Positions 548 through 38,935 of a stretch of DNA of 64,000 bases are shown here, in pieces. The translations under genes and the position numbers were made by a program. A model generated the notes under the pieces. The model searched no databases, had not been told where the DNA came from, and saw only the letters and a list, made by a program, of their open reading frames with translations. Source of the DNA: a bacterium (GTDB lineage Bacteria; Patescibacteriota; Doudnabacteria; UBA920); NCBI GenBank assembly GCA_016699995.1, contig CP064996.1:528584-592583 (forward strand), written 5' to 3'. Position 1 is the stretch's first letter. The number at the start of each line of letters is the position of its first letter.

Positions 548-713
548 GGATTTATTATAGCATTTTTGATTAGACAGACTTGTCCACAAATTTATTTCAT
601 AATTTAAAAGGCTGCCCTGTTTTGGGTGCATAAGTGACCAGGCTAGAATCTATTTCGACAATCCCTAACTGAATTCCTCCCTGCGGGTAAGGTATATAGA
701 TAAGGATAAGCTA

Positions 714-807
714 GCTTGCACAAAGCCCAGTGTTGTGATAAAAGTATAGGATAAGAAATCCTGATGGATTTCTTAAAATTGCATATTTACAACCAAAAAG
801 GAGGTAA
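714..807. repeat. left arm of ~95-bp inverted repeat; carries 9-4-9 palindrome aagaaatcc-tgat-ggatttctt followed by aaaattgcatatttacaaccaaaaaggaggtaa (RBS) immediately upstream of the 811 start codon
   Basis: Reverse complement of 6645-6737 aligns to 714-807. The distal 57 bp are identical, including the flipped palindrome loop. The proximal part is ~85% identical. Confidence 0.85.
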
Positions 808-810
808 GTT

Positions 811-1347
811 ATGAAATCCAAGAATGAGTATTTTATGGCAGCCAATTCGGAGCCACGTGCAATAATCACAGGGATGACCACTGGCCGTGAATTTTCTGTT
901 CGTGAATATACGTACGGAGTCCTTGTGCCAGACAGCAGTCACCCACTCTCGTGCGTCAGCGTGTCTAACAGCTCGTTGAGCATAGATCTATGGGTTGGAT
1001 GCTCTTGGCAGTGTAGATATTGCCACGTCCAAGACACGCATCAAGATCTCGCAGATCAGGGCACAATGCCCAAAAGACCGAGGCAACGCACTCAGTTCAC
1101 TGTTGATCAAATCATTGATGAACTGATTAAACATCCATTTTTTGTTGCTGATGAGACAATCATCAGCATTGGAACAGCAAGCACTGAACCGTTTGCACCC
1201 GGACCTGTTACTGACAGTACGTTTGAGATTATGGATGCATTCGTGCGTCGAGGTCTTCGAAACCCTTTCTGGATCGTCACTAAAGGCGGTGTTCCGAAAG
1301 GAAAAAAGAAGACATTGCCCGTATTACAAACGCAACACGGGGCCTGA
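811..1347 (+). CDS. radical SAM domain protein (CxxxCxxC; SplB/COG1533-like 'GCxxxCxYC' context), 178 aa
   Basis: WVGCSWQCRYCH motif is C-x3-C-x2-C preceded by G, as in SPL-like radical SAM enzymes. Strong RBS aaaggagg 8 nt upstream. Stop TGA overlaps next ATG (TGATG). Confidence 0.5.
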   Translation: MKSKNEYFMAANSEPRAIITGMTTGREFSVREYTYGVLVPDSSHPLSCVSVSNSSLSIDLWVGCSWQCRYCHVQDTHQDLADQGTMPKRPRQRTQFTVDQIIDELIKHPFFVADETIISIGTASTEPFAPGPVTDSTFEIMDAFVRRGLRNPFWIVTKGGVPKGKKKTLPVLQTQHGA

Positions 1348-2045
1348 TGTTGTCTCTATGTTGGGCAGATAATCCTAATACGATTGAGCCCGCTCGCAAC
1401 AATCGCTTCCTTAACGCAGAAGAGGCAAAAGAGGCTGGCGCTACTATCGCATGGTACATGCGGCCGATAGTTCCTGAATGGAGCGGGAACAGGAATCGCA
1501 TCGAAATGATGATGCTCTGGGCCAAGAAGCACTACGGCAACGTCATTGATATGATCATACCCGGAGGATTGCGTTGGACTGAAGGTATTGAGAATGGACT
1601 GGTGGGAATTCATAAACTCCCCATGCCAAACATTCCACGGGATGACAATGTAAAGATGCTACCTCAAGATCTGATAGACTTTACCTTTTCCTTGAGCGCC
1701 GAACACTTCCCTGGAATTCCTGTATACCTCAAATCCTCTTGCGCACTTACTAGGATGCTCAAGATCCCAAGTATTACTTCGGTTCATGCATTTGCCAAAC
1801 ACGAATGCGAGGAGTCTCGTTGCCCTATTGCTCAGCGACAAATCTGCGCTAACGGAGCAGCATATTCCATGAGCACAGAACGAGCCCAGGCAATATTAGA
1901 TGATCTCGGGATTCCAGCTCATGTCCTGAGCTGGGATATTAACCACGGACTTGTCACTTACCCCGAGATGAACAAGTTCACCTACGCAGTCAGGCAGACT
2001 ATATTCAAACATTTGGCAATGGGAGATTCACATGAAGTTGTATAA
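1347..2045 (+). CDS. hypothetical protein, 232 aa; possibly C-terminal half of a split radical SAM enzyme (translationally coupled to 811..1347)
   Basis: ATG overlaps the upstream stop codon. No recognisable motif. Cys-rich (CPIAQRQIC). Confidence 0.35.
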   Translation: MLSLCWADNPNTIEPARNNRFLNAEEAKEAGATIAWYMRPIVPEWSGNRNRIEMMMLWAKKHYGNVIDMIIPGGLRWTEGIENGLVGIHKLPMPNIPRDDNVKMLPQDLIDFTFSLSAEHFPGIPVYLKSSCALTRMLKIPSITSVHAFAKHECEESRCPIAQRQICANGAAYSMSTERAQAILDDLGIPAHVLSWDINHGLVTYPEMNKFTYAVRQTIFKHLAMGDSHEVV

Positions 2046-3891
2046 TGAAATCAAAGATCACTTCAGAACCTACGGTTTCAACTGGCAAGACAGTGTTCCG
2101 ATCTTGAGTTCAAATCCTAAACTCCTGTTCAATATTTCAGGCGGTGTAATATTCGAAAGCACGATCTCTGATGGAGTGACCCCAGAGAAAGCCCGTGTCG
2201 TTTCGGTGCAAACCTGCCTCAGAACTGATGGCTGGGAAAAGATAGGATACTCAGGACGGCATCATCTGGCATTCGACATGCTAGGCCACTTTTCCCTATA
2301 CGAAGACAAAGAAGACAAGGTGAAAGGTGTGATGATAGAAAGTGCTTGGAACTATTTGACCCAACGTCTGGGCATTAATCCGGGCCTCTTATCGGCAACC
2401 GTTCATCCGCAAGACACAACATCGCAAAAATTTGGAAAAAATTTCGGTGTAAAGACTGCCGCTAACGATGGCAATGTCACTTACACTCCGACCAGAAACA
2501 GATGCGGCGTCCGCACGGGAGATTGTCTGGCAAAATCCGCATACGAATAAATCAATCGAACTCTGGAACTTGGTTTTTACCCAGTTTGAGGGAGATGCTC
2601 TATTCAAATCTCCGTTGGAAACAATCGCTGCCGATTCTGGAGCCAGTATTGATCGCATCGTCACTGCAATCGAATGTAGCCGAAGCGATTATGAAAACTC
2701 CAACTGGAAAGGCATAGTCGAATCAATCACTGAGCGATCCAAAGTTCAAGATCAAGCCATCATGTGTCGCTTAGCCGATCTAGGTAAAGCATCAACGCTG
2801 CTAGTATCTCAAGGGCTTAGACCTGGAAACAAAGCAGCTGAATACGTTCTTCGGAAACTCATCCGAGAGGCTTACATTCTCTGTCGGCAAACCTCGATTC
2901 AATTCGATGAGTTTGCTGCGATATCAGAAAGTCATTGGTCTCCGTCCGCTGCGGTTCAAACCGTACTTATCGAAGAAGTGTCAAAGTTCGAGAAAGGTCT
3001 CGAACGTGGGAAAAGAGAATATCAAAACTCATATCCCGCAAGACAATTCCCTTGTCGAATCGGATATAAAATATCTAGCATCTACGTTCGGCTTTCCAAA
3101 AGCTTTAATCGAACTCGAGGAATCGAAACGAAAGGAGGCGAAATGAAAAATCTCGTTTCCGAACTTGCTCGCATTCTGCGTGAACTACAAGGCTTACAAG
3201 TGCTAGTACATGTCGGATTGAAAAGAGATTCTTCTAAGGACAAAGTCGATCTCTTAGCGGGCTGTGATCAGGGAAGGATTGAAACATATTCCCCCTCATT
3301 GATTCCCTCCTAAGAAAACGATGGCCCGTTGGGAACTTCTCCGTTTGTGACGACAGTGTTCGCGGACCTATCATCAGGTACGGGCGGCATTGCAGTATGC
3401 GATGCTAGTCTGCTTATCGAGCAGGTTCAAGAATGGATAGAAGGCAAAAATTGGGCGGACAACACCGCTCCTGGGCAACTGGATATTGGTTGCCGGAGGC
3501 GTTATGTGGAGACTTGGCAACGGCAGAAACCCTATATGACAAGACTGGCATCAATGATAAATTAAAAAAACTACTTGTTCCCTATCCAGCTTCGCTCTCG
3601 AAATTTATCAGTGAGCTATGCATAGACGAGATCAGGCAAAAACAATCGACATTCAAAATGCTGCACGAAAATGCAACAATCGAACGTCAGCTATGCCTCT
3701 CGGATATCTCGGCTTCGTTGGTGAGACTTGCATTCGCTCGCAGCCACCAATACCTTCGCGGATTCCGCTCACTTGAGAAACAAGCGAAACTGCTTGAGTT
3801 TTCAGATCTGCCTATTTATGGGCTTGCCTTGGAGATTTCAAAGGGCACAAGAGTAAAATCGATGATGAAAAGAATTGAGGAACTACTCTAA
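2032..3891 (+). pseudogene. divergent alanyl-tRNA synthetase-like gene (catalytic + tRNA-recognition region), disrupted by >=2 frameshifts and with degenerate motif 2
   Basis: ORF 2032..2550 has AlaRS N-terminal signatures: LLF, VQTCLR (cf. SQRCVR) and GYSGRHHLAFDMLGHFS (cf. GYTARHHTFFEMLGNFS). ORF 2468..3313 has IELWNLVFTQF (cf. EIWNIVFMQF), a motif-3-like DSGASIDRIV, and RPGNKAAEYVLRKLIREA (cf. PSNEGRGYVLRRIIRRA). ORF 3433..3891 has AETLYDKTGI (cf. AFRLYDTYGFP). The frames are 1, 2, 1. The GPCGPC of motif 2 is replaced by LTLRPETD. Confidence 0.7.
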
Positions 3892-4530
3892 TTATAGAGG
3901 TATACGAAAGTGTGCCTCTTTTTTTATTCAACAAGGGTCTTTTTCCATTTTCAATAAAAATAGCCTGCGAGTTATTTATTCTCTCAACACAGACCTTGTA
4001 TTTTTCTTCAAAAGCTTTTGCTTGTTCCTCAATATCTGAAGAATAGTGCGGTAATACGATAAGGTTTGTGATCCCAAGCCCTGTATAATCTTCGAGACCA
4101 ACCTCGTTTTTATCTGCAGAAACTTCTCCGGCAATTTCGATTGATGGACCAACAATAATACTTCCTGCGCTGACGCCTATATATATCCCATTTCGATCTA
4201 GCAGGCTTTCGATTGATGTCTTAAAGTTTGATTTTCGAGCAAATTTAAGAAGTTTGAAAGTATTACCCCGCAAACATAGATAATAGCGTATTGAGTAAAA
4301 TCCCTATCGGGTTCGGTTTCAAGGTCTATAAAATCAATATGCGAGAACCCCATCTCCACAAATTGTTCCTTGGCGAGTTGAGCGTATTTATTATTTTCTT
4401 TTTCTTCTGCAGCTGTCGTGACTATAGCAACGGAATAATTAATATAATTTAAAAATGAGCCCTTAAACCTTTTGATAACCGGCTCGGAAGAAAATCCAGT
4501 TGATGTTAGAAATATAAAACCTTTAACCAT
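3812..4530 (-). pseudogene. pepE: peptidase S51 (dipeptidase E / PepE-like), frameshifted at a G-homopolymer
   Basis: N-terminal ORF 4198..4530 ends ...AIIYVCGV. C-terminal ORF 3812..4273 reads GNTFKLLK...IYIGVSAGSII (GxSAG serine nucleophile motif). The junction falls in the conserved GGGNT, where the sequence has tgcggggtaat. One more G would restore the frame. Confidence 0.65.
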
Positions 4531-4559
4531 GGCTTCATTTTACATGATTTTTGTAATTT

Positions 4560-4603
4560 TTAAAAAAAGACCTGCCTCGTGGTTTACACAAAGCAGGTCT
4601 GGG
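4560..4603 (-). terminator. rho-independent terminator downstream of the alaS-paralog
   Basis: Minus strand reads cagacctgc-(loop)-gcaggtct followed by ttttttt. Lies 8-50 nt after the stop at 4611. Confidence 0.6.
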
Positions 4604-4610
4604 TATTTTA

Positions 4611-5903
4611 TCACTTCTTAGGTCGGCGTGATACGTTCCGATGATCCTCGATAAGTTTAAGAAACTCCACCTTCGGAAAAGTTATGTCATGACGCTCACA
4701 AAATTCTTCCAGGAGGTCCTCGGGAATACCTATACCGGTTTTTAACGTGAATGCTTGATGTGCATCCAATTCTTTCGCCGCGACGATTTTGTCGAGATAC
4801 TTTCCACTGCGATTCATCAACTTTTCAAAACTGACCCGTTCTTCGCTGATCCAATGTGCGATAACAGATTTGTGACGAAAAGTTAAATCCTTGTTATCAA
4901 TCACTTGGCTAAGAGAATCCACCCACTCTTGGAGAATAGTCAGATCAATTCCTCGTAGAAAGATGCCTATCATCGCTCGCCGTAACGCGCGACGGAGAAG
5001 GTATCCCTCCCCAGTATTGCTCGGAATGATACCCTCGCGAATCATCAAAATCGAAGTTTTGACATGGTCAAGGATAATCCTCGTCCATGGCATGTCGCCA
5101 ATTCGCTGGTTAATAAGAAGGTAAGACGATTCATATTGGTCGATCTCATGAATCGAAGCGCGGTCTTGCAGGATCATGGCAAAACGCTCAAGACCTGCAC
5201 CTGTGTCTACACACTTCATCGGGAGCTGGGAGAAATTCTGTTGTTCATCCTTGAAGTATTGCATGAACACCCCGGCATTCCAGATTTCGATGTGTCGCCC
5301 AGGCACCAACATATCATCCGTCTCCTCCTCAGCAAATTCCTCGCCACGATCAAAGAAGACTTCCGTGCAAGGACCGCATGGGCCGCTGGTTCCCGCCGGA
5401 CCCCAAAAATTATCTACTGGTGGCCTACCAATGATTCGATCCCGCGGCAGGAATTTCTCCCAGATTCGAGCAGATTCTTCGTCGTCCGGAATACCTGGGA
5501 GACTGTCGTCAGCAACGAATACTGTGGCATAGAGACGGCCAGCTGGAATACCAAACCCTTCGGTAATGAGCTCAAAAGCAAATTCGATGGCTCGCTCTTT
5601 GAAGTAGTCCCCGAAAGACCAAGAACCCATCATACGGAAGCTAGTCCCGTGATAGGAATCACCAATGCTTTCGACATCGACAAATCGGATGCAATCCTGC
5701 ACATTGGTCAGACGTGGATAGGGCGGTTTAACTTGGCCAGTAAAATAAGGCTTAAGCGGGGCCATACCAGAGTTAATAAACATAAGGGTCGGGTCATTCT
5801 CGGGGATGATACCCGATTGCTTGATAAGCCGGTGATCACGCTTGAGAAAATAGTCCAGAAAAGTCTGGCGCACCTCCTCAGTGGTCTTAGATGGCAATTT
5901 CAT
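4611..5903 (-). CDS. alanyl-tRNA synthetase paralog, catalytic/aminoacylation domain only (430 aa; no editing or C-Ala domain)
   Basis: Full class-II AlaRS core: ENDPTLMFINSGM, VQDCIRFVDVESIGDSYHGTSFRMMGSWSFGDYF, motif 2 GPAGTSGPCGPCTEVFFD, IEIWNAGVFMQYF, motif 3 DTGAGLERFAMIL, YLLRRALRRA. Stops after the tRNA-recognition region. Own RBS (ggag) and own terminator. The start overlaps the AKR stop by 17 nt. Confidence 0.8.
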   Translation of the reverse strand: MKLPSKTTEEVRQTFLDYFLKRDHRLIKQSGIIPENDPTLMFINSGMAPLKPYFTGQVKPPYPRLTNVQDCIRFVDVESIGDSYHGTSFRMMGSWSFGDYFKERAIEFAFELITEGFGIPAGRLYATVFVADDSLPGIPDDEESARIWEKFLPRDRIIGRPPVDNFWGPAGTSGPCGPCTEVFFDRGEEFAEEETDDMLVPGRHIEIWNAGVFMQYFKDEQQNFSQLPMKCVDTGAGLERFAMILQDRASIHEIDQYESSYLLINQRIGDMPWTRIILDHVKTSILMIREGIIPSNTGEGYLLRRALRRAMIGIFLRGIDLTILQEWVDSLSQVIDNKDLTFRHKSVIAHWISEERVSFEKLMNRSGKYLDKIVAAKELDAHQAFTLKTGIGIPEDLLEEFCERHDITFPKVEFLKLIEDHRNVSRRPKK

Positions 5904-6673
5904 AATTCTTCTCCTTTAAGGTGCCAATATTTCGTGTGATTTGCTCCTCTGTTGTCATACCAATAACGACAGATGATCCAAGTGCTAACGCATTTTGTAT
6001 AATCATTTCAGCGGAGCGTGTACTAGTGAGCAATTTTCCTTGTTTGAACAAACTTCTCAGTAGAACCTCCTTCTTAGAATCCAGTAGATATGGAAGCTGT
6101 TGAAGGACCCAAGTCTGCTCAATATTAAAGGGAGCTTCCACTATGTCGATGTACGGCAAAACCGTTTCAGAGACAGGGTATAAAAAATTGTCAGGTAAAG
6201 AGATTCCTACACGCTTAACAACACCTTCATTCTTGAGTCCATTCAGGCATTCTAGGATTGCTTCCTGCTTTCTGATGACCATGTCGGCAACCAGTTATGC
6301 AAAAGCACTGCATCAATAGAAGATCGACGCAACCTTTCCAAGGATCCGTACAAACTTCGATGTATATTGCCTTGTGAGTAAAATCTTTCAATCGGTTCAG
6401 GTCTTCTAGATTCGGTTTGATTGCTGCGGGAATTTTAGTCACAATGGTCACATCTTCGGGCAGACATGCGCCGAGCATTGCTTCGACTTTGCCTCCCCCA
6501 TAGACGGCCGCCGTGTCAAAACGGCGAATGCCAGACCTAACAGCGAAAAGCAAAAGCGATTCGATGTACTCAGTAGACAAATTTTTGAATTGCCCACCAA
6601 GTTGCCACGTACCGAAGTAGAAGCCGATTAGACCAATCCATAAATTACCTCCTTTTTGGTTGTAAATATGCAA
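5887..6673 (-). pseudogene. aldo/keto reductase, split into two overlapping ORFs (frameshift near 6282)
   Basis: 6227..6673 has LIGFYFGTWQLGG...FDTAAVYGGG, the AKR N-terminal signature. 5887..6282 has ILECLNGLKNEGVVKRVGISLPDN, the AKR 'GkirylGvSN' region. The two reading frames overlap by 56 nt. Confidence 0.6.
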
Positions 6674-6737
6674 TTTTAAGAAATCCTGATGGATTTCTTA
6701 TCCTATACTTTACCACAATACTGAGCCTCGTGCAAGC
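6645..6737. repeat. right arm of the ~95-bp inverted repeat (inverted copy of 714-807), supplying RBS/start context for the minus-strand AKR gene
   Basis: See left arm. The palindrome plus aaaaaggagg module faces inward on both sides. Confidence 0.85.
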
Positions 6738-6757
6738 CCGCCCACCCTCATCGCAAT

Positions 6758-6789
6758 AATTTAAGGGCTGCCCTGTTTTGGGGCAGCCC
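6758..6789 (+). terminator. hairpin gggctgccc-tgttttg-gggcagccc; terminator-like; a direct-repeat copy of 601-626
   Basis: Perfect 9-bp stem, then gtgtttgttttt. Similar sequence aatttaaaaggctgccctgttttggg at 601-626. Confidence 0.45.
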
Positions 6790-6820: not shown

Positions 6821-7513
6821 CTAAGCCTTGCGAGAAATTCCGTCTTCGACATGGTCCAGCACTTTTCGCGCATGGTCCTTGCCCCCGAGGCCAAACGCCA
6901 AACCGCCGGCAATTGCAATCATGGCGATTACAGCACGGAACAGGTCGAGCAAGAAAGCTTTGGCAATTTGCAATTCGGACAGCGCAGCTATTAAAGCAAA
7001 AATGATAACTGCCCAGCGAGTGATAGAACCAAGCATATGGCCAGATTCAAAACCGCCTGCTTTAACGGTGCCTTTTACAACATCGCCTAAGAAGTTAGCG
7101 GCAATAATACCGAGCAACATAATTGCCATAGCAATCACTACATGGCCGGCATAGCCCAAAACGTCTGCATAGAAGAAGTTGGTAATATCGGAGAGTCCCA
7201 AAATATCTGCAGCTGCGATGATGCTAGCCAAGATGAAGAACCACTTAATTACAAACTGAACGATGCTAGAAATTTTGATAGTGCGGCCGCTGCGTTCGGA
7301 TAAACGCTTTAAGCCGAGCTGATCCCCGAGCCCGTCGATACCGACAGACACCAATGCTCTGCGAAGAACATTGCCTAAGAAGATACCAATAATCCAACCG
7401 AGCAACAAAACAATTGCAGCAGCTAAGATGTTTGGCAAAAACTGAATTACCCGATCGTACAGGTTATATACAGAATCCTGAACTACGGTTGGATAATCGT
7501 TATAATAATTCAT
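6821..7513 (-). CDS. integral membrane protein with repeated conserved-TM-helix motifs (MscS-associated TM_helix-like), 230 aa
   Basis: Multiple hydrophobic helices with repeated ILGLSDITNFF / AIIFALIAALSELQIA patterns. Confidence 0.4.
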   Translation of the reverse strand: MNYYNDYPTVVQDSVYNLYDRVIQFLPNILAAAIVLLLGWIIGIFLGNVLRRALVSVGIDGLGDQLGLKRLSERSGRTIKISSIVQFVIKWFFILASIIAAADILGLSDITNFFYADVLGYAGHVVIAMAIMLLGIIAANFLGDVVKGTVKAGGFESGHMLGSITRWAVIIFALIAALSELQIAKAFLLDLFRAVIAMIAIAGGLAFGLGGKDHARKVLDHVEDGISRKA

Positions 7514-8129: not shown

Positions 8130-9842
8130 TTATTTTTGGGCTTCGACCGGCGGTGCAGGGGTTTCGACGGGTGCGGTGGCTGACTGAGGAGCCAATTCTT
8201 GAGCTAAATCGAGCGTAGAGGCCTTTAAATCGCTCTTAATTGGGAGGGAAAAGGCAAAGGTGGAACCCAAGCCTGGCCCGTCGCTTTCGGCCCAAATTTT
8301 GCCATTGTGCTGCTCGATGATAACTTTTGCCACATACATGCCCAAGCCCAGCCCGGTAGCATGGGTGGCCGAGTCTTTCCCGCGGGAATATTTGTTAAAG
8401 ACGTTTTCGAGCTCGCTCTTTTCGATGCCTTTGCCGGTATCCTTAACGCGTACGGTAATATTTTTGTCATCGGCTTCGATACCGATTTGAATATCCCCTA
8501 CTTTGGAATATTTAATGGCGTTGTCTATCATGTTATTCACAACCTGCCGAACTTTTTCGTGATCCACGATTATATCGGGAATAGGCATCTTTGGCGGAGT
8601 GTAAACCAAGTGCTGCTTCTTCATTTGAGCAAGCGGTTCGAGCTGCTCTACCAACACCTTCACCATCGGCTCCAGATTGAAGTTCTCAAAGAAGAATTCT
8701 AACTTGCCGCGCTCGATGCGAGAAGCATTAAGAAGATCGTCGATGGTAGAGATCTGTGCTTCGTTGGTAACGTTGGTACGGCTAAGGGCGGCTTTAAGTT
8801 CTTCGCTGAGCGGGCCGAAATCGCCATTAAGTACCGCTCCTAAATACCACTTAATGGTTGCAGGAGGCGTGCGCAACTGATGACTAGCGATGGAGATGAA
8901 CTCTGCACGAGCTTTGTCCAGCGCTTTGAGCTGTTCATTAGCGGCAGCGAGCTCTTTAGATAATACTTCTAACTCTTCGCGCTGTTTGACTTCGCGGATG
9001 ACGGAACGGACCAGGAGGATGCCAACACTAAGCACCAATAAAAAGATGCTCGAACGAACAATGATCGCTAAAATATCATCGGAAACAATTACTTCGAACA
9101 GAGTTGCAATAGCTAGTACGAATACCAATACTTCTGTAGATACAACTTTTACATTTAGCAAATGATGTTTGAATATCGCATAAGCGGCTGCAAACGCGAA
9201 GGGAAAAACAAAGACCGCGCTTAACGGAATGAAAGATGTATTGTTAAGCACGGTAGGAAAAATAAAATTGAGCACGATAATACAGGCGAACATTACGATA
9301 ATGCCGCCCATGAGATTCCATAACGGTTTTCTTTCTACTGATGTCGCTCTATTTATTTTCTTTGCCAGGCTAACAATTCCGCCGATCACCATAGCCACAG
9401 CAAAAGCGCCAAAGAACATTATTCCAGGCTCTACCACTGGCTGAGCAACACTTCCAGGAGTAAAAATAATGGAAGAAAATACAAAGGGTGTTAACGTAAA
9501 CATCGCCACCACAAATGCGACGATTAAAAGAATATAGTACCTCTTAGGGCTTATTTGTAATTTTTCACTCGGAAAATTGTATAGCAGCAACAAAAGTGTT
9601 AGAGATTGAAACACAGCAAAAAACAAAACCAGCCTAATAATCCATAGGGCCAATACTGGATTACTGACTTGATAATTTAAGTAATTAACGATACTCCAAG
9701 CGCTGCTGGTAAGACTAAAAAGCAAAAAGAAAATATTGGTAGCGCTCCTTGTGTTTTGGAAAAAGACAATAAATCCCAAAATGGTCACTGCTGCAACAGA
9801 AACGCCAACGGATATTAAATCTGCGTTTAAAAAAATATTCAT
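8130..9842 (-). CDS. sensor histidine kinase with N-terminal multi-TM sensor domain, 570 aa
   Basis: H-box SIASHQLRTPPATI. HATPase_c blocks DNAIKYS, VKDTGKGIEKSELENVF, GLGLGMYVAKVI. About 8 TM helices at the N-terminus. Confidence 0.85.
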   Translation of the reverse strand: MNIFLNADLISVGVSVAAVTILGFIVFFQNTRSATNIFFLLFSLTSSAWSIVNYLNYQVSNPVLALWIIRLVLFFAVFQSLTLLLLLYNFPSEKLQISPKRYYILLIVAFVVAMFTLTPFVFSSIIFTPGSVAQPVVEPGIMFFGAFAVAMVIGGIVSLAKKINRATSVERKPLWNLMGGIIVMFACIIVLNFIFPTVLNNTSFIPLSAVFVFPFAFAAAYAIFKHHLLNVKVVSTEVLVFVLAIATLFEVIVSDDILAIIVRSSIFLLVLSVGILLVRSVIREVKQREELEVLSKELAAANEQLKALDKARAEFISIASHQLRTPPATIKWYLGAVLNGDFGPLSEELKAALSRTNVTNEAQISTIDDLLNASRIERGKLEFFFENFNLEPMVKVLVEQLEPLAQMKKQHLVYTPPKMPIPDIIVDHEKVRQVVNNMIDNAIKYSKVGDIQIGIEADDKNITVRVKDTGKGIEKSELENVFNKYSRGKDSATHATGLGLGMYVAKVIIEQHNGKIWAESDGPGLGSTFAFSLPIKSDLKASTLDLAQELAPQSATAPVETPAPPVEAQK

Positions 9843-10855
9843 ACCCTAACTATAACCTTATCCAAATCTATTCTAGGACTAAAATGAGGCATATCTGGAC
9901 CATAACCGATTCTAAAAAACATTTGAGGTCTCGTACTGATGCCTAAAGCTTGTTTAACCAATTTATAATTATCTCCTATTTCGATAGGTGCGCCCATTAT
10001 TCCAATTCTTAAACCTAAACCCTCCGCTTTTAAAGCTATTTTCTCGAAAGACATACCTGCCTTAACCCAAGCGCTTTCGTTATCTTCTACAGTACTGATA
10101 ACACCATACACTGGTGCATTCTTAAGCCACTCTTCGTGCATCTTGGCTTGAAAGTTTTGCAAGTTAAAATTTCTAATTGCAAATGGTAATAGGTAAGAAA
10201 TTAATTTTGGCACGCCGATCGTGTAGCCAGGCATACCGTCCCGATACTTAACAGAACTTGGCTTTACCCAAGCTGATAATTCGGTAGTAAACTTCTTATC
10301 TGCAAAAGCTTCTTTAACCGATTTAGAAACAATATCTCTAATGGACTGTTTCTGATTTTCTTGGCTCACAAAAGTTGAAACTATTCCCTCTAAGCACTCA
10401 GCAGCCATTTCATCCAATATGGATTGGTCTATTCGTCTGTCTTCAAGAGGCAGTCGGTTAGTTTTACGGTTTACCAGATTATCAAAAGCTTTCTGATCGA
10501 TTGAAGATGATGCTAGAGATTGATAATAAATTGTAAAAATAGTGTTCTTATCAAAATCGAAATTATACTCTGCATCATACTTCAAGCCTAAAGAATCTGA
10601 TCCGTGCAGTAAATTCTGGATCGCTGCGCCGATGCTCAGAAAAAGCTGGCGGTTATTTTCGTCGGAATAAGGTAATTTTCGATCGAAGTTTGCTTTGACA
10701 GTTATTGTTTTATCTCGAATCTCAAAAAGCCATGGTTGAGTATTATGGCTCGAGGGTGCTAAAGATGCTAATAGAACCAAAAAATCCAATCTTGCAGAAT
10801 CTGTTTGTAATTGGTCGTATTTTTCTATTTTTATTTCTGTACGAGGATTGTACAT
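9839..10855 (-). CDS. nitroreductase-family protein (tandem/extended nitroreductase fold), 338 aa
   Basis: SSHNTQPW (SxHNxQPW nitroreductase signature) near the N-terminus. Start overlaps the HK stop (ATGA-type coupling). Confidence 0.6.
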   Translation of the reverse strand: MYNPRTEIKIEKYDQLQTDSARLDFLVLLASLAPSSHNTQPWLFEIRDKTITVKANFDRKLPYSDENNRQLFLSIGAAIQNLLHGSDSLGLKYDAEYNFDFDKNTIFTIYYQSLASSSIDQKAFDNLVNRKTNRLPLEDRRIDQSILDEMAAECLEGIVSTFVSQENQKQSIRDIVSKSVKEAFADKKFTTELSAWVKPSSVKYRDGMPGYTIGVPKLISYLLPFAIRNFNLQNFQAKMHEEWLKNAPVYGVISTVEDNESAWVKAGMSFEKIALKAEGLGLRIGIMGAPIEIGDNYKLVKQALGISTRPQMFFRIGYGPDMPHFSPRIDLDKVIVRV

Positions 10856-10880
10856 TTAATTTATTATACCACAAAATTGG

Positions 10881-10904
10881 AAAAACCGGCCGGGCCGGTT
10901 TTGT
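10881..10904 (-). terminator. rho-independent terminator right after the ammonia-lyase remnant stop
   Basis: Minus strand: aaaaccggcccggccggttttt plus T-run. Confidence 0.6.
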
Positions 10905-11180
10905 TTAATTCTGAATTAAATCCTTTTTTAGTTTTTCAATCTCTTTGTATATCAAAGCGTCGTCAGCATAGAAAGGAACCTTTGATCTCACATATTCATA
11001 AGTTTCAGCATTGCCTTTACCAGCCTTTAATGGACTTCGCAATTCAACAGCCTGGGCAGCTGCCGCTAACTCGACTACCAAAATTTCAAATGCCATGTTT
11101 ATAATGTCTCTGCATTTTCGAGCAGCGGTCGTCGCGAAGCTTACGTAGTCTTCCTGGTTAGCAGAAGTAGGGATAGAAAC
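10905..11180 (-). pseudogene. hutH: C-terminal remnant (~90 codons) of an aromatic amino-acid (histidine/phenylalanine) ammonia-lyase; 5' part missing
   Basis: Minus-strand frame reads IPTSANQEDYVSFATTAARKCRDIINMAFEILVVELAAAAQAVELR..., matching the HAL/PAL C-terminus (SIPTSANQEDHVSMG..AARK; AIELLAAAQALD). The frame opens at a stop immediately adjacent to the res gene end at 11180. Confidence 0.6.
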
Positions 11181-13780
11181 TATTCAAGATCATCCAATTC
11201 TTCTAATAAATTTTCTAATTCACACCTAAATTTTTCTTGGCCTTTTAATATTCTCCCATCCTTCAAATACTCAAAAAATGTAGAATATCCTTCTGGACTC
11301 AAGAAATGAAAAATGTATTTTTGTTTAATTTTATTTTCCTCTAATTTATTGTTCAACCTCTCAAAATGTTCTTTCGCATATTTGTATTTTGCCTTGTTTT
11401 CATCGCTGTCGTCTTTGTCCGCTTTTATCTCAACAACAACAAAATAATCTACATTATCTTTTGTGATCTTGATAAAGAAGTCAGGATTAAACATCCCAAT
11501 CTTTTGGTGATTTGATGGTCTCCATGAATACTCAATGCCATAAAATCCACGATCCCGAGATTTTAACCACGCATCAATTTTCTCCGCAATATCCTTTTTG
11601 CAAAGGTTCTCGATGAATCTTCGTTCTGGTTCTGCGTTAGAAAAAACAACATTGACGGGGGTCTTAAACAAAAACTCATTTTGTTCCTTGTCGGCACTCT
11701 TGGGGAAACTCTCATCTTCTTTGAGCTTCTGCATTATGTTTCGTTGTTCATCGTCAAAGATCTCATTCTCCCAGTTGTTTGTGTAGAATAATGAATATCC
11801 ACGCCTAAAATTACCAACACCAGAACTTTCGCGGATGATATTTTTTGTAGAAATAACAACGGGTTCATTTACTTTTAATTGTGGCACAACTGTCTTGCTC
11901 TTTTTTCGCAGAAGTGTAGCAAAGGTATTGAGAATCTTATTGACATTTTTTTCGATGATTTGATCACCCTTAATACCAACGTTTTTCATGGATTTGAGAA
12001 TGATCTCTCGGATTTTTTCTTTCGGTGGGAGGTTATTTTGTGTGTACTGCTCTTCCCCGAGTTTCAATATTCTTCCTTCCCAATCTCTAATCTCAAATTC
12101 CTCATAGATTCTGTCCACCACTTCTTGAACAGTCCAAGTTCCGTATTCAATAACATAATTCTTCTCCCGAATATCTTTCGCAGTTATTGATTCATAAGAG
12201 GTGCCTTTTTCTGTTTGTATCACTTGAGAATCCAATTTGATACCTTCTTTTTCAATACGAGAATAATTAACAACTGGATTGGGTTTGTGTTCTACTTCCA
12301 CTTCTTCTTTGGTGTAATCAAGATTGTAAACATCAAAATGATATTTTGATCGGTCATCATTCTTAACAATCTCACTGATTATTCGAGTTTCGATTTCCAA
12401 CACTTCATCAACAAGAGCTTTTATACCTCTGCTCCATGCGTCATGGTTAAAAACAATGATTTTTGGTTGAGGAGTTGTATATGCCTCTGGTAAACGCAAA
12501 CCGCGCCCCAATACTTGTGCGATAAGAAGTTTAGAATTAAACGCCTTATCTTCCCATGGAACGATTTGAAAAACGTTTTTAACATCCCAACCTTCTGTAA
12601 GCATCGAGACAGAAACAATCCATTCAGTCGGATTTTCTCTATGATCAACTGTTTTCAATTTTGATAAATTGCCTTTATGATCCTTATGAGAAGTAACAAT
12701 CAAAACTTTTTCTTCAATACTTTCACGAGGTCGCCCCTCTCTCTTTTCAAGGAAATCAAGCAAATCTTCCATTAAACTTTTTGCCTTGGAAATATCTTTA
12801 GTGATCAAAATTGAAAGAGGTTTGATTTTTGGGTACTTATCAATATTCTCCTTGTGGTTTTGATATATTTTTTGGAACTTTTCATCAGTCCCCGAACTGT
12901 CATCTTTTTGTACATATTCAATATTCTTTACTATTCTATCTTCAATGGCTTCGCGCAAAGAATAGCGATAAATAACATCGTTAAAGTACTCGTTGTCATG
13001 ATACGCTGTACCAGTAAAACCAAGAATGTAACGAAAGTTGAAATCTAGATTTAATAAAAACTCCTTCCACCGCTTCAAACCTTGCGCTTCTGTTGTATTG
13101 CCAGATATTTTATTAAAAATATGGTGAGATTCATCATTAAGCACTAAAACGCGCTCGCCTTGTCTTTGGAAACTATCCTTAATCGATGACCCAGTTGTTT
13201 CATAAACTGCATGGATATTTTCAACACAAATACTTCCGTTTTTGACAGTGATATTTGCATCAACAATGCTTGGGTTTTTATAAAGAGCATTCGCTGGTAT
13301 CGATTTTTTGATTCGTGCATTCCCACTCAAATCCTCAAACTTCTCCAACAGTCCGTCTTCAATCGTCAAAGATGGGCAGAGTACCAAAACTTTATCTACC
13401 AAGCCTAACCCAAGCATGATTTGTGCCACACCATAAATTACATACGATTTTCCTGTACCAGTCGCTAAATCAATGTTTGCAAAAAGTTTATTAGGTAGCT
13501 GTAAATGGTGATGGTAATCGCTAAGGGTCGGATACTTTTCTTGCAGTTCGGGATTTTTATTGTAATTCTCATGTACTAAATCCTCAGTAGTAACATAACG
13601 CCCAGATGCAAGAAAGATAACCGCGTGTTTTATTGCTTCCTTTTGGTATTCTCTGTCTACACACAAGGTATCCAAAAAAGAATCCCATGCGCCCAAATCT
13701 AACTTTGTCGGATCATAGTTTTGATTCACTTTTAGAACCAAGTCTTTTTGTTTGTAAGTTTTAATATCCTGCATAGTCAT
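11180..13780 (-). CDS. res: Type III restriction endonuclease Res subunit (SF2 helicase + C-terminal PD-(D/E)xK nuclease), 866 aa
   Basis: Walker A LATGTGKSYVIYGV. DEAH-like VLNDESHHI. Helicase C motifs. C-terminal DFFIKITKDNVDYFVVVEIKADKDD nuclease-like motif. About 33% GC. Confidence 0.85.
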   Translation of the reverse strand: MTMQDIKTYKQKDLVLKVNQNYDPTKLDLGAWDSFLDTLCVDREYQKEAIKHAVIFLASGRYVTTEDLVHENYNKNPELQEKYPTLSDYHHHLQLPNKLFANIDLATGTGKSYVIYGVAQIMLGLGLVDKVLVLCPSLTIEDGLLEKFEDLSGNARIKKSIPANALYKNPSIVDANITVKNGSICVENIHAVYETTGSSIKDSFQRQGERVLVLNDESHHIFNKISGNTTEAQGLKRWKEFLLNLDFNFRYILGFTGTAYHDNEYFNDVIYRYSLREAIEDRIVKNIEYVQKDDSSGTDEKFQKIYQNHKENIDKYPKIKPLSILITKDISKAKSLMEDLLDFLEKREGRPRESIEEKVLIVTSHKDHKGNLSKLKTVDHRENPTEWIVSVSMLTEGWDVKNVFQIVPWEDKAFNSKLLIAQVLGRGLRLPEAYTTPQPKIIVFNHDAWSRGIKALVDEVLEIETRIISEIVKNDDRSKYHFDVYNLDYTKEEVEVEHKPNPVVNYSRIEKEGIKLDSQVIQTEKGTSYESITAKDIREKNYVIEYGTWTVQEVVDRIYEEFEIRDWEGRILKLGEEQYTQNNLPPKEKIREIILKSMKNVGIKGDQIIEKNVNKILNTFATLLRKKSKTVVPQLKVNEPVVISTKNIIRESSGVGNFRRGYSLFYTNNWENEIFDDEQRNIMQKLKEDESFPKSADKEQNEFLFKTPVNVVFSNAEPERRFIENLCKKDIAEKIDAWLKSRDRGFYGIEYSWRPSNHQKIGMFNPDFFIKITKDNVDYFVVVEIKADKDDSDENKAKYKYAKEHFERLNNKLEENKIKQKYIFHFLSPEGYSTFFEYLKDGRILKGQEKFRCELENLLEELDDLE

Positions 13781-13783
13781 ATT

Positions 13784-15748
13784 TTATACGGTGAAAATTT
13801 CAGCAAAGTCATTACCGTAAACATCAGTATAAATCACCATTATTTGCTTTCCCAATTCAGATTTTTTGAACGAAATTTCTAAACCCTTCTTCTCTATTTT
13901 CTTAAGTTCTGATTTTATATCCTCGTCATCGTCTTCTTTTTTATTTGCTTTCTTTGGCAAAAGTTCATCAGCAAAAAAAGCGTCATCCATTTCGAATGCT
14001 TTTCCATTGTAGCTTTTATCAACAAAGACAGCAGATAGGGTTTCGAAATTTTTCATCCCTTTCTCGTCTTGTGATTTGTCGGATTCAAGTTCTTGGCTAG
14101 TAAAACTCTTAATTAAGATTTTTACTCTATCCTTGTCTTTCTTTATTTCCGACTTTACTTCGGGATGTCGAATAAAGTGGAAACCAATCGCTTCTTCCAA
14201 ATCGTTCACATTCTTTTTACTTTGCGGTTGTCGCAATTTTAGGAATGGTGTTTTGTGGAGCTCTTTAATTACATGATATGGAATCTTGAGGAAGTAGTAT
14301 TTTACCCCGTCAATTTCATGGTAGTTAGAGAGAAAATCAACAAAGTTTGCTGGGGCAATAATATACACGCGACCACTTGCTTTCTTTCCGACAACTGCAT
14401 GTACATCTTTCAGATATTTTTCGTTAATTGTAGAGTTTTTGAAAGTTTGATAATCAAAAATCTTTACTGGGAAATCGCCTTTCATACCCTCAAATTCAAA
14501 CCCCGCAATTTTGTTTTTCTTGATTTCCACTTCAAAAAGCCCAGAGACAAACTCTTGATATTTTTGCCATTCCAAATCAAGTGCTCTTTTTAGATCATAG
14601 ATACCGAGTTGAGCAGTAACAAAACTTTTTGATTTCTTCCCGTACTTTTTATTTTGATCTTCTAAATCCTTTGAATTTTCAATTTGCAAAATGCGCTTTT
14701 GCATTGTGAAATAGGAAAGCTTACCTAGGTCACATGTAATCCATTTTCGTCCTAACTTTTCGGCTATATAAGCGGTTGCGCCAGAACCACCAAAAAAATC
14801 CATCACAATATCGCCTTCAACTGAAGCCGCTTTGATTATTCTCTCGATAAACTTATTTGGCTTCTCTGTCGGGTATCCAGTTCTTTCAACACCGTCTACT
14901 CTCAAACGAGCGGCGACTGAAAACTCCCACCAATCTTCTGGAACTTTTCCCTTTTTTCTTAATTCCTCCAAATCTTCCTCATCCCATCCTTCACCATCAT
15001 CAAAAGCAGTACGAAATGATTGATTAGGGTCTTTGTAAGGAACCCTGATCTGATCTTTGTTAAAAGTCCATTTATCCGATTTTGAGTACCAAAAAATCGT
15101 ATCGTGTTTCCTATTAAATTGCTTCATTTTAGGCGATCCTGGGCCTGTATATACCCAAATAATTTCATTCACAAGATGAAGTTCGCCGAATATCTCATCC
15201 AGTGCCAATTTTATGTAATGAGATTTTTTGTAATCGAGGTGGACAAATATACTTCCATCATCTGCCAATATTTCTTGTGCTAAAATAAGTCTACGTCGCA
15301 AAAACTCAACAAATTCTGCACCTTTCTTTTTGTCATTGTAAGCTTTTGCTCCTTCTTTGTTTAAGAAATCATCGGTAGTCGCAAAAGGTGGATCTATATA
15401 AATAAGCTTTACTTTTCCTTTCACCTTATCTTTTATCAGAGGGTCCTTATTTTCGTAAATGGTTTTAAGGAATTGCAGATTATCACCGAACACGATCATA
15501 TTTTTCCATCCATCCTTAAACGATTCGTATTCATTGCCATTGAAAACTTTTTCAGTTTGAAGAGGGACAGGGAAAACACCATCCTCATTTGCAAGCAAAT
15601 CTTCTTTTCGCATCTTCCCAGCATATACCAACTCATACTCTTTTTGAGTTGTTGGGAAAAGCAAGTATTTAAAATCGAATGGAATTTCTCTCCCGTCTTG
15701 TAGTGTTTTAACTAAAAATTCTGTATCAAATTTAGTGAGTTTTTTCAT
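13784..15748 (-). CDS. mod: Type III RM Mod subunit, N6-adenine (beta-class) DNA methyltransferase, 654 aa
   Basis: Motif IV IYIDPPFAT (DPPF/Y). Motif I VMDFFGGSGATAYIAEKLGRKWI. Immediately upstream of res, on the same strand. AT-rich. Confidence 0.85.
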   Translation of the reverse strand: MKKLTKFDTEFLVKTLQDGREIPFDFKYLLFPTTQKEYELVYAGKMRKEDLLANEDGVFPVPLQTEKVFNGNEYESFKDGWKNMIVFGDNLQFLKTIYENKDPLIKDKVKGKVKLIYIDPPFATTDDFLNKEGAKAYNDKKKGAEFVEFLRRRLILAQEILADDGSIFVHLDYKKSHYIKLALDEIFGELHLVNEIIWVYTGPGSPKMKQFNRKHDTIFWYSKSDKWTFNKDQIRVPYKDPNQSFRTAFDDGEGWDEEDLEELRKKGKVPEDWWEFSVAARLRVDGVERTGYPTEKPNKFIERIIKAASVEGDIVMDFFGGSGATAYIAEKLGRKWITCDLGKLSYFTMQKRILQIENSKDLEDQNKKYGKKSKSFVTAQLGIYDLKRALDLEWQKYQEFVSGLFEVEIKKNKIAGFEFEGMKGDFPVKIFDYQTFKNSTINEKYLKDVHAVVGKKASGRVYIIAPANFVDFLSNYHEIDGVKYYFLKIPYHVIKELHKTPFLKLRQPQSKKNVNDLEEAIGFHFIRHPEVKSEIKKDKDRVKILIKSFTSQELESDKSQDEKGMKNFETLSAVFVDKSYNGKAFEMDDAFFADELLPKKANKKEDDDEDIKSELKKIEKKGLEISFKKSELGKQIMVIYTDVYGNDFAEIFTV

Positions 15749-16279
15749 ATAAATTCTATTTGAGTCCCAAAAAAGTTAATCGAGATAAGTGAAACCATTT
15801 TACCATAAATCACACCTTAAATAAAGGGTTTTAGAGTGACCAAACCATCATTCGGCGTCATTAATCCGTTGCTCGCAAATGCAGAACATACTAAACTGAC
15901 ACCTGACGAGTTTAAAACAACTAAGAAAGTGAGATGCTGTTCTCTGCTCCCCCTAAATCGACAGAACAAGATGAACCGGAAGCTTTTTCTATCTATTCCG
16001 AAATAAGGGAAATGATGAATATGACATATAGGAAAAGCCTACATACCGAGAGATTGTAGAGAATTCATTCAGCAAAGAACTCCCGTGCCATTGAATATTA
16101 TCTGTTTCGCAGGAAGAAGCCCCAAAAACAGCTCGGCAACCTTGGGATTACTTTAGCTTCCACACACCGAATCCTTCTTTTAATTTATGATAATAGCACG
16201 TATATTAATACAGTGAAATTTGGCTCTCACGAGGAATAGCTTGTACAAACCATTTTTAATATAATTTTAATTTAATTTC

Positions 16280-28695: not shown

Positions 28696-29217
28696 CTAGT
28701 CGCCCTTTTCGCCTGCGTCTTTGGCGAACTCAACGCTGTCTCCGCCGTAAACGACATAGTCATTGTTGACTTCCTGGCCATTAACGTAGGCTTTAGCCGC
28801 CGGAGAAATACTCAAAGCATCTCCCAGCTTGCCGCGCAGAGCGCGAATGGTCATGCCGCTCACGTTAAGCGACTTCTGGTGAGCGCCGCTGACAACTTGG
28901 ACAGCGGTGGCACCCGTGGCTTCGGCCAAACCGGTAGACTCGAACGCGATGCGGTCGCCGGCCTGGATCGTGTAATTATCACCGATCTGCTCGCCCGAAA
29001 CAAACGCTTTGTGGTGCTTGCCCAGGCTGAGGCTGGCGCCGTACTGGTCGCGAATGAAAAAGATCGATTTACCGACTGCGTCGGACTCAGGGATGTTGAT
29101 CACATTCCCGTCACACGACACCTCGATAACGTTATCCCTCGTTTCATCAAACAGATCCGCAAACATGTTACCGCCTGCTTCCGTAGTTTCCATATCAAAT
29201 TCGTTTTCATTTGCCAT
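28696..29217 (-). CDS. tandem ThiS/MoaD-like beta-grasp (ubiquitin-like) protein, two ~65-aa Ubl repeats after a ~30-aa leader, 173 aa
   Basis: Repeats ...ASLSLGKHHKAFVSGEQIGDNYTIQAGDRIAFESTG and ...DALSISPAAKAYVNGQEVNNDYVVYGGDSVEFAKDAG match the ThiS consensus (vavNGe.v.....l.dGD.vei). Preferred start ATG at 29217 (MANENEF) with GGAGG ~15 nt upstream, 8 nt after the E1 stop. The track ORF extends to 29343 but overlaps E1. Confidence 0.6.
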   Translation of the reverse strand: MANENEFDMETTEAGGNMFADLFDETRDNVIEVSCDGNVINIPESDAVGKSIFFIRDQYGASLSLGKHHKAFVSGEQIGDNYTIQAGDRIAFESTGLAEATGATAVQVVSGAHQKSLNVSGMTIRALRGKLGDALSISPAAKAYVNGQEVNNDYVVYGGDSVEFAKDAGEKGD

Positions 29218-29224
29218 AGTTCTT

Positions 29225-29968
29225 TTATAGTTCCTCCATACTTTTTGACGAGACCGCTCTTTGAGCAAGCCCCTTGATACTACAATATACAATATCCGGG
29301 AAAAAAGGCTTCTCGGTATAGTACACATTGTAGAAAACTTCACCCATTAGTGCCGCCACCCGCCAGTTGGTGAAAATCAGTTGGGGGGCTCCTGCGACAG
29401 CCAGTTCTTCACAACCGGCTTCGCCTGGATTCTTATCCTTTGGATCACCGATCGAAGGCGAGCTTTCGACTAGGGATTTAGTGAAATTTTCACCATCTTT
29501 CCTAATGTACAGCTGTACGCTTCCGTCGTCAAACTCATTTCCGCCGCAGATCATCACCGCATCGGCGAGATCTTCGAACCGTTCGGAAAAGAGCTTTCGT
29601 GAAGCATTATTATCCACTCCCATGAACACCAGATCATTTTCCCGGACATGCCGGTTGATGTTAGCCTTGGTTACGTACTCCATGACTGTCGATATTCTGA
29701 GATTGGTAAAATGCGCGACTTGATCTCTCAGAAGCTCGGCCTTATAGCCAAGCCCGTTGAAATTTTGTCTGGTAAAATTCCGTTCTTCTACTTTGTCGCC
29801 ATCGATGAGGACGATCTCCGTCTTTTCTCCACCTTCCTTATGGGCAAAGTGCAGAAATCGGCATAGGGGCGGGACAAGCCAGCCCCCAATGCCGCCACAT
29901 CCAACCACGACAATGCGGTTGAATTTATTGATCATTAGTTCCCTCCTTAACTGCCGTTTCAGTTGCAA
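29225..29968 (-). CDS. minimal E1-like (ThiF/MoeB superfamily) adenylyltransferase, 247 aa
   Basis: NRIVVVGCGGIGGWLVPPL...IVLIDGDKVEERNFTRQNF is the E1 nucleotide-binding signature. No rhodanese or Cys-rich C-terminal domain. 5' end overlaps JAB gene by ~44 nt. Confidence 0.75.
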   Translation of the reverse strand: MQLKRQLRRELMINKFNRIVVVGCGGIGGWLVPPLCRFLHFAHKEGGEKTEIVLIDGDKVEERNFTRQNFNGLGYKAELLRDQVAHFTNLRISTVMEYVTKANINRHVRENDLVFMGVDNNASRKLFSERFEDLADAVMICGGNEFDDGSVQLYIRKDGENFTKSLVESSPSIGDPKDKNPGEAGCEELAVAGAPQLIFTNWRVAALMGEVFYNVYYTEKPFFPDIVYCSIKGLAQRAVSSKSMEEL

Positions 29969-38842: not shown

Positions 38843-38935
38843 CCCACGGCCCTGCTCAGCTATTTGGGACATTAAGCCGAAATTTCAATTTATCGTATAG
38901 GCGAAAACCACCGGCAATTCGTCGGTGGTTCTTTA

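Follow-up and report, generated by a model that had tools for sequence, protein, structure and literature searches.

Several described systems come close to parts of the structure considered here. The mRNAs of ompA, aprE and ermC carry stabilizing stem-loops at their 5' ends, and the gene clusters of albomycin, mupirocin and agrocin 84, as well as amino acid:carrier-protein ligases, involve tRNA-synthetase paralogues that serve amino-acid activation or self-resistance; bacteria of the Candidate Phyla Radiation (CPR, Patescibacteria) are thought to have very little specialised metabolism. Inverted repeats that undergo arm-to-arm conversion or flip-flop inversion include those of plastids, tufA/tufB in Salmonella, the palindromes of sex chromosomes and the flip/flop region of yeast chromosome XIV (PMC9731477, PMC8981503). 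The present study concerns a stretch of 64,000 nucleotides (hereafter the window; contig CP064996.1, positions 528,584 to 592,583) of a patescibacterium of the Doudnabacteria lineage, taken from an NCBI metagenome-assembled genome of 943,189 bp in one contig (locus tags beginning with IPM19_), in which two inverted-repeat arms, at 714-813 and 6639-6737, enclose a cassette of six genes, among them a radical SAM gene and two genes derived from alanyl-tRNA synthetase (AlaRS). With a probability of about 0.65, we consider the arms to be two copies of one expression module that drive both convergent operons of a mobile cassette and are kept alike by recombination.

As in the converting inverted repeats, the two copies are more alike within than between genomes, and homologous exchange is the expected cause; unlike them, the repeat of the cassette comprises only ~100 nt of promoter and leader rather than genes, and the outer end of the homogenized tract varies from lineage to lineage. 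With composite or miniature inverted-repeat (MITE) transposons and with invertons (Hin/Gin, Fim, shufflons) the locus shares inverted repeats that bracket a discrete mobile gene block, but the cassette has no transposase or recombinase, its arms end at start codons with promoters pointing inward, there is no consistent target duplication, and its orientation cannot alter expression. The arm hairpin resembles the ompA, aprE and ermC leaders in being short, stable, a few nucleotides from the predicted 5' end, upstream of a strong Shine-Dalgarno sequence and subject to compensatory changes; in contrast to them, its stem sequence is unusually conserved in most copies. As in the natural-product clusters with synthetase paralogues, a synthetase-type gene stands beside tailoring enzymes (radical SAM, reductase, nucleotidyltransferase fold, peptidase), to which a relative in a firmicute joins an exporter, ATP-grasp ligases and a carrier protein; the cassette, however, has only five to six genes and resides in ~1-Mb CPR genomes. 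Our result is a variant, in an under-studied bacterial group, of known phenomena, namely concerted evolution of inverted repeats and gene clusters with synthetase paralogues.

The layout of the cassette in the window is given below, with gene identities taken from Pfam and NCBIfam profile searches, "intrinsic" hairpins and the S51 promoter-like site taken from scans, and the -35 and -10 elements predicted.

714-813, plus strand: left arm, with candidate -35 TTGCAC at 716-721 and candidate -10 TAAAAG at 739-744
753-811, plus strand: parts of the left arm, namely the hairpin at 753-774 with loop TGAT, TTTACAAC at 786-793, the Shine-Dalgarno sequence GGAGG at 800-804 and the ATG at 811
811-2045, plus strand: radical SAM gene of the SplB / Rv2578c-like branch, 411 aa when intact, split in the window by a 1-nt homopolymer deletion at ~1308
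2032-3146, plus strand: divergent AlaRS-like gene, 371 aa when intact, with five homopolymer indels in the window copy
3143-3891, plus strand: gene of a kanamycin-nucleotidyltransferase (KNTase)-like-fold protein (DUF4037-related), 250 aa, frameshifted in the window
3896-3919, plus strand: terminator-like hairpin, intrinsic type, closing the plus-strand operon
3926-4530, minus strand: peptidase S51 gene (PepE/cyanophycinase family), 202 aa when intact, frameshifted in the window
4564-4537, minus strand: promoter-like site of the S51 gene's own
4568-4600, minus strand: terminator-like hairpin, intrinsic type, closing the operon of the aldo-keto reductase and the AlaRS catalytic domain
4611-5903, minus strand: gene of a stand-alone AlaRS catalytic-domain protein, 430 aa, intact in the window
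5887-6641, minus strand: aldo-keto reductase gene, 250 aa when intact, frameshifted in the window
6639-6737, minus strand: right arm, with the hairpin at 6678-6699 (loop ATCA in arm orientation) and a candidate -35 at 6735-6730

A preliminary description of this DNA had reported inverted repeats of ~95 bp around the segment, and these are borne out by a repeat finder run on the window (73 nt, 741-813 / 6639-6711, 93% identity), by pairwise alignment, which carries weaker similarity out to ~714 and ~6737, by shuffle statistics, and by their recurrence in independent short-read assemblies. The arms lie ~5.8 kb apart, and their homology ends at ATG+3 to +7, that is, the start codon forms the inner boundary. 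Facing inward as first described, each carries a putative promoter, a leader and a ribosome-binding site, the left for the radical SAM and AlaRS-like genes on the plus strand and the right for the aldo-keto reductase and AlaRS catalytic-domain genes on the minus strand. Exactly two copies each of the 22-nt palindrome AAGAAATCC-TGAT-GGATTTCTT and of the 33-nt leader AAAATTGCATATTTACAACCAAAAAGGAGGTAA are present in the window, with a shuffle expectation of 0.00 (0 in 100) in both cases, and no further arm copy was found in the window or in the loci fetched from other assemblies (designated below by L numbers). The module is not a common promoter in any of the DNA examined, and when a genome collection was scanned with the palindrome alone (AAGAAATCCNNNNGGATTTCTT), at least 120 unrelated hairpins were returned, the extended module being present in none of the matches listed. 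Two contigs of the short-read sample SRR11674018 (L001 and L124) end 30 nt (k-1, one less than the k-mer length) inside the arms, which reproduces the arms independently of the window assembly.

Of the 57 bp that the two arm ends were said to share, the palindrome and leader module does stand in both, as 55 nt (753-807 in the left arm), and the longest strictly identical inverted stretch is only 42 nt (3' stem plus leader), because the palindrome loop is flipped between the arms: it reads TGAT on the plus strand in both copies and hence, in arm orientation, TGAT on the left (762-765) and ATCA on the right (6687-6690). The right-arm loop is supported by L124; the left-arm loop is known from the window. 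The flip resembles a "minute inversion" of a hairpin loop, of the kind that Kelchner and Wendel reportedly described in 1996 for plastid non-coding DNA, in that the 4 nt of a loop framed by 9-nt stems stand as their reverse complement in one of the arms, with the difference that the present case is a bacterial promoter leader. In L144 both arms have ACGA, possibly a flipped loop that was homogenized afterwards. One T/A of a homopolymer at 6708, in the -10 region of the right arm, is missing from the window and present in L124; this difference between the arms is an error of the window sequence.

We propose that each arm combines a sigma-70-like promoter, an 8-9-bp stem-loop at or near the predicted 5' end, the conserved single-stranded leader TTTACAAC, a strong Shine-Dalgarno sequence and the start codon, and that the two copies would drive the convergent pair of operons in a CPR cassette that is self-contained and moves horizontally. 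Because the operons point inward and are closed by internal terminators (3896-3919 and 4600-4568), both units would, judging from the layout, be expressed alike wherever the cassette is inserted, with little read-out into host genes. Recombination or gene conversion between the copies would maintain their likeness, and an occasional inversion of the 5.8-kb segment would be an expected consequence of this recombination, without functional change since each operon would keep a promoter copy.

The cassette forms a family. It was found in at least seven other Patescibacteria contexts (including the variants L141 and L154-161), and its six-gene set in two convergent units recurs in unrelated surroundings in L125/L126, L131, L133, L136 and L144. 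A single-operon form runs from the aldo-keto reductase through the radical SAM and AlaRS-like genes to the gene that the profile searches left unassigned, with the S51 gene opposite (L134, L135, L142, L145-153). In an AlaRS-less form, the radical SAM gene is followed by the same unassigned gene and by S51, and this unit is convergent with the aldo-keto reductase and a synthetase-type gene, which in L138 encodes a class II catalytic domain of Asp/Lys/Asn type (304 aa) and in L141 and L154-161 a class I lysyl-tRNA synthetase (LysRS). For the radical SAM protein there are 218 relatives, which share 80-91% identity with it in several Patescibacteria groups and ~50% in firmicutes; none was found in viral contigs, the radical SAM proteins that plasmids yielded were all distant (the ten matches listed having 24-27% identity), and our literature search found no paper on this cassette. 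The arm-to-arm comparison in other members is as follows.

L125: arms of 107 nt, ~96% identical
L144: arms of 112 nt, 91% identical
L131: arms of 198 nt, 100% identical
L136: arms of 462 nt, 100% identical
L141: arms of 138 nt, 99% identical
L138: arms of at least 112 nt, 100% identical
L154 lineage: arms of 408 nt, 100% identical

Twin arms are thus present in nearly all two-operon cassettes, always with the inner end at ATG+3 to +7 and with an outer end that varies (95-462 nt). Within the proximal 100 nt, an arm is 88-100% identical to its partner in the same genome and 69-87% identical to arms from other genomes, without any signal particular to the left or the right side, and this excess of within-genome likeness indicates concerted evolution of the arms. 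In the AT-rich hosts L131 and L141 both arms have drifted or been replaced together; their arm sequence is degenerate or replaced though the genes remain 76-87% identical. About ten contigs of ~5.9 kb consist of the cassette alone, those of the Logan collection that were checked ending in exactly 30 identical inverted nt (k-1), and two ~5.2-kb contigs of LysRS-type cassettes from other assemblies end in 141 or 123 identical inverted nt. Because the cassette-only contigs end inside the arms, the arms act as a graph-breaking repeat in many independent samples, which explains the orphan ~5.9-kb cassette contigs in many short-read metagenomes and hides their genomic context. Upstream of the module we also noticed a conserved non-coding region of ~350 nt (L136:1100-1450, L155:1993-2300, L144:9650-9900) with a long hairpin GGTTTTGC...GCAAAACC and without an Rfam match; by alignment, 627-713 of the window is an 87-nt degenerate remnant of this longer region in L136, L155 and L144.

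That the arms interact, as their concerted evolution shows, is also what one would expect if their relevant property were to serve as recombination substrates of an invertible (flip-flop) segment, by RecA or a dedicated enzyme, with orientation heterogeneity as the outcome. Repeats of 95-462 nt with 91-100% identity at a distance of 5.8 kb are adequate substrates, and a yeast flip/flop region maintained by homogenized inverted repeats offers a published analogue (PMC9731477). Inversion would not switch expression, however, as each operon retains its own promoter and ribosome-binding site in either orientation; the 20 proteins scanned in window 1-20,096 included no recombinase, and recombinases near some other loci occur inconsistently; the conspecific L125 and L126 share one orientation, and L124, over the length that it covers, matches the window arrangement. 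The contigs of short-read assemblies end within the arms. The flanks of the L154-lineage contigs were considered as evidence of inversion and set aside, the shared 408 nt being explained simply by long arms. We regard it as unlikely that inversion as such is what the arms are for.

Turning to the module itself, its order is retained across lineages: a -35 element (TTGCAy, TTGTAT or TTGACn), a spacer of 16-17 nt, a -10-like hexamer, ~7-10 nt, and the stem-loop, followed by the conserved AAAATTGCACATTTACAAC, then AAAAAGGAGGTG, then ATG. We infer the promoter from this cross-lineage conservation, and the predicted transcription start follows from the -35/-10 spacing. Every leader folds into the hairpin. 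Stem positions 1-7 can pair in 70 of 70 cells over 10 distinct leaders, with two-sided changes at all seven positions and G·U in three cells, and the loops vary (TGAT, ATCA, TGGT, ACGA, TTGT, GCAA, TTT and others). Because the stem covaries, G·U pairs included, an RNA hairpin at the 5' end of the transcript is favoured over the sequence-specific operator of a repressor. Rfam searches of the window and seven loci returned only tRNA and rRNA at the gathering threshold, and relaxed searches of the arms gave nothing credible.

The competing reading of the 9-4-9 palindrome, as a DNA operator through which a dimeric repressor (of TetR/Xre type, as the preliminary description had suggested, or an AlaRS paralogue) co-represses both operons, draws on the overlap of the palindrome with the predicted transcription start and on half-sites that are conserved in most cassettes around a variable spacer; E. 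coli AlaRS is said, by Putney and Schimmel in 1981, to repress alaS via a palindrome at its promoter, which we take as a lead only. Yet entirely different stems (L143, L140, L137, L142) keep pairing, including G·U pairs that would be mismatches in DNA, and no regulator gene accompanies the module in the cassette though it travels between hosts. Autoregulation by an AlaRS-type protein is further disfavoured because the same module, unchanged, is present in LysRS-type cassettes, which lack AlaRS paralogues. An operator role is, in our estimation, somewhat less likely still than inversion. The related suggestion that a leader-gene-alaS unit had been duplicated in inverted orientation is not supported, as only the leader is duplicated, radical SAM and aldo-keto reductase being unrelated and homology stopping at ATG+3 to +7; sister cassettes with a LysRS or an Asp/Lys/Asn-type domain and no AlaRS paralogue retain the same arms. 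Of the earlier proposals, the alternative of a duplicated promoter/operator cassette comes closest to the data.

A number of points tell against reading the arms as twin RNA-leader expression modules, and we list them together. A consensus promoter scan of the arms did not flag the module; the placement of the hairpin within the transcript, at its 5' end, is deduced from position; the register of the covariation table was set by hand; and the stem AGAAATCC/GGATTTCT is strongly conserved in most copies, which fits a protein-binding palindrome as well. L133 and the single-operon form (L134, L135, L142; L145 was left out of this inverted-repeat scan) have no twin arms, so that the repeat is not obligatory. 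The 100% identical arms of 198-462 nt come from short-read assemblies, and assembler path errors could account for part of the arm length in L131 and the L154 lineage and for the whole of the L136 arms; the arms of L131 and the L154 lineage do have independent support. The count of module copies covers the 64-kb window of a 943-kb genome plus the fetched loci.

The surroundings of the cassette in the window bear on how it came to its present site. The relevant features, none of the repeat copies having a strand, are the following.

599-626: left direct-repeat copy, the truncated 3' half of the terminator of the MscS-like gene, assigned from the repeats and the empty site in the relative L122
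627-713, plus strand: inserted DNA outside the well-conserved arm, delimited by alignment
6755-6782: right direct-repeat copy, inside the complete terminator hairpin 6765-6789 of the MscS-like gene
6821-7513, minus strand: MscS-like gene, flanking the cassette on the right

The outer direct repeat (604-626 versus 6760-6782) is 91% identical, and its 17-mer core is found exactly twice, versus 0.15 expected. In L122, whose flanks are ~78% identical, the site is empty: the MscS-like gene is followed by ~190 bp and then yceG, without the cassette, whereas in the window ~27 nt corresponding to the 3' half of the MscS terminator are present on both sides of 627-6754. By this sequence comparison, segment 627-6754 is an insertion between the terminator of the MscS-like gene and the promoter of yceG, and the ~27-nt repeat fits a duplication of part of the terminator made at insertion. 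This upholds the accessory nature of the segment, as does the occurrence of the cassette in many unrelated contexts; the terminator-like direct repeat claimed just outside each arm is likewise present, with a full hairpin only on the right (6765-6789), the left copy being truncated and not flagged by the terminator scan. GC content was rejected as a sign of foreign origin, the cassette at 0.447 being equal to the window mean.

A mobile block bracketed by inverted repeats, with a flanking direct repeat in the window and mobile-element genes near or inside some copies, might be read as a non-autonomous transposon with the arms for its terminal inverted repeats, or as a composite transposon that a MITE-like pair forms and that is mobilized in trans. 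We consider this very unlikely. The inner boundary is always a start codon while the outer boundary ranges from 95 to 462 nt; the arms of L131 and L141 degenerate or are replaced while the genes stay similar; L133 and the single-operon form move without arms; no further arm copies occur in the window or the fetched loci, and the cassette encodes no transposase. The ~27-nt duplication far exceeds typical target-site duplications, and seven other loci with enough flank show no consistent flanking duplication, the direct repeats there being chance-level matches only. Insertion of an integrase type is a separate possibility, to which the ~27-nt terminator repeat of the window may point, as may tRNA genes that adjoin or lie near several other copies, including a tRNA-Val 3' fragment inside the L155 arm and an intact tRNA-Val gene adjoining the L136 arm; an integrase gene is absent from the cassette. 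The mobile-element genes themselves comprise an IS200/IS605-type Y1 transposase between the nucleotidyltransferase-fold gene and S51 (L155:4477-4920, L156:4452-4895, L163:2102-2545), an rve-type integrase inserted within the L138 cassette (L138:2567-3226) and, just outside other cassettes, a large serine recombinase (L155/L158) and a tyrosine integrase (L154).

A few neighbouring features deserve mention. The yceG promoter (548-590, minus strand) has an extended -10 TGCTATAAT, the end of which lies just 6 nt upstream of the ATG, and no Shine-Dalgarno sequence, a layout shared by L122, which suggests that the yceG mRNA may be leaderless. A histidine kinase of the seven-transmembrane (7TM) type lies a few kb from the cassette in three contexts (window 8130-9842, L131:20793 onward, L133:14336-16642); this proximity is probably a coincidence, the window copy belonging to the host locus, being present also at the L122 empty site. 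A block of low GC at 9500-16000 (0.35-0.40 versus the window mean of 0.447) holds a type III restriction-modification pair (res 11180-13780, mod 13784-15748) and is probably another acquired island.

The many homopolymer indel errors in this region might suggest that the structure arose in the assembly of a long-read metagenome-assembled genome, but such an artefact is practically negligible as an explanation, given that short-read contigs of SRR11674018 reproduce the right junction and both inner arm ends and that homologous twin arms are found in NCBI, JGI, ENA and Logan assemblies.

The errors do matter for the genes. L001, a Logan contig of 5,903 bp found through an exact match to the 430-aa protein, carries all six genes intact (411, 371, 250, 202, 430 and 250 aa) and is 99.6% identical to window 778-6674, the differences being 15 indels, most of them single-base in homopolymers, and about six substitutions; L124, which covers 2 kb to the right, departs from the window at one substitution and two homopolymer indels. 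Indels that outnumber substitutions are characteristic of consensus errors in long reads and not of decaying genes. Because a short-read contig this similar is intact and differs mainly by homopolymer indels, we read the frameshifts as sequencing error, and the "degraded genes" of the preliminary description are most likely an artefact, the attribution to long reads being based on the error pattern. Public annotation is corrected accordingly for five of the six cassette genes of this genome, which seem broken only through homopolymer errors. Indels are denser in the cassette (15, or 2.5 per kb) than in the 2 kb to its right (2, or 1 per kb), with sites at 1308-6624, 6708 and 7562; read mapping there may have been misled by variants of the cassette from the same community. 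The MscS-like protein has no exact match on record, which one substitution at 6961 explains, and overlapping same-strand pairs of open reading frames at 28696-29968, 38228-38900 and 49872-50574 are maybe further genes split by homopolymer errors.

As for what the cassette encodes, profile searches agree with the preliminary description on the radical SAM protein, the two AlaRS-derived proteins, the S51 peptidase and the aldo-keto reductase. The product of 3143-3891 has a predicted structure (pLDDT, the model's own confidence score, 88.8) with a KNTase-like fold, matching 6p01_A in a fold search (E 1e-6, template-modelling score 0.59); a profile search of PDB sequences found no match, the fold search alone succeeding, and DUF4037 is present in some homologues. 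The AlaRS-like protein, aligned to one AlaRS of solved structure, retains the motif 2 arginine, the RHH-F-MLG-FS block and the D-x-G alanine-site motif. Against the alaS model TIGR00344 (cutoff 457 bits) it scores 163 bits, and the catalytic-domain protein scores 355 bits over model positions 1-429 of 847; we rejected a canonical alanine--tRNA ligase for both, as both fall below the cutoff and the 430-aa protein covers only the first half of the model. The latter is a member of a large family of "alanine--tRNA ligase-related" proteins of ~430 aa in Patescibacteria, its 120 listed homologues being 317-472 aa long, nearly all ~420-440 and far below the 847 positions of the model. The six cassette proteins match no PADLOC defence model, the cassette has no match to a specific NCBIfam family, and it contains no regulator or transposase gene.

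Across the family, radical SAM, KNTase-fold protein, S51 peptidase and aldo-keto reductase form the constant core, and the part combined with it varies (AlaRS fragments, class I LysRS, or the Asp/Lys/Asn-type domain). A larger related locus in Thermoactinomyces sp. DSM 45892 (L164:6415-15300) holds a 257-aa gene, aldo-keto reductase, radical SAM, a carrier protein, a class II synthetase-like ligase, an ATP-grasp protein, a 405-aa unknown, S51 and a major facilitator superfamily (MFS) transporter, with a second ATP-grasp gene (4614-5855) upstream on the opposite strand; this gene set points to small-molecule biosynthesis or resistance. The locus has the look of an entire biosynthetic cluster, and the chemistry may be best approached through it. 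From the gene content, the most likely role of the cassette is to make or detoxify a small molecule derived from an amino acid, with an exchangeable gene of tRNA-synthetase type. More tentatively, and at odds we would not call favourable, it might be an undescribed, self-insulated "plug-and-play" small-molecule pathway spreading among CPR/Patescibacteria, in which the swappable synthetase module sets the amino-acid moiety of an antimetabolite or of the matching resistance, and the converted, freely flipping twin promoters give independence of orientation and context.

The twin-promoter architecture is a natural example, and a clean one, of a regulatory element that undergoes concerted evolution, and a compact gene set with swappable tRNA-synthetase genes, exchanged among CPR bacteria, is now defined. 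If an aminoacyl-type antimetabolite is indeed made or resisted by this cassette, it would bear on how CPR episymbionts compete or survive.

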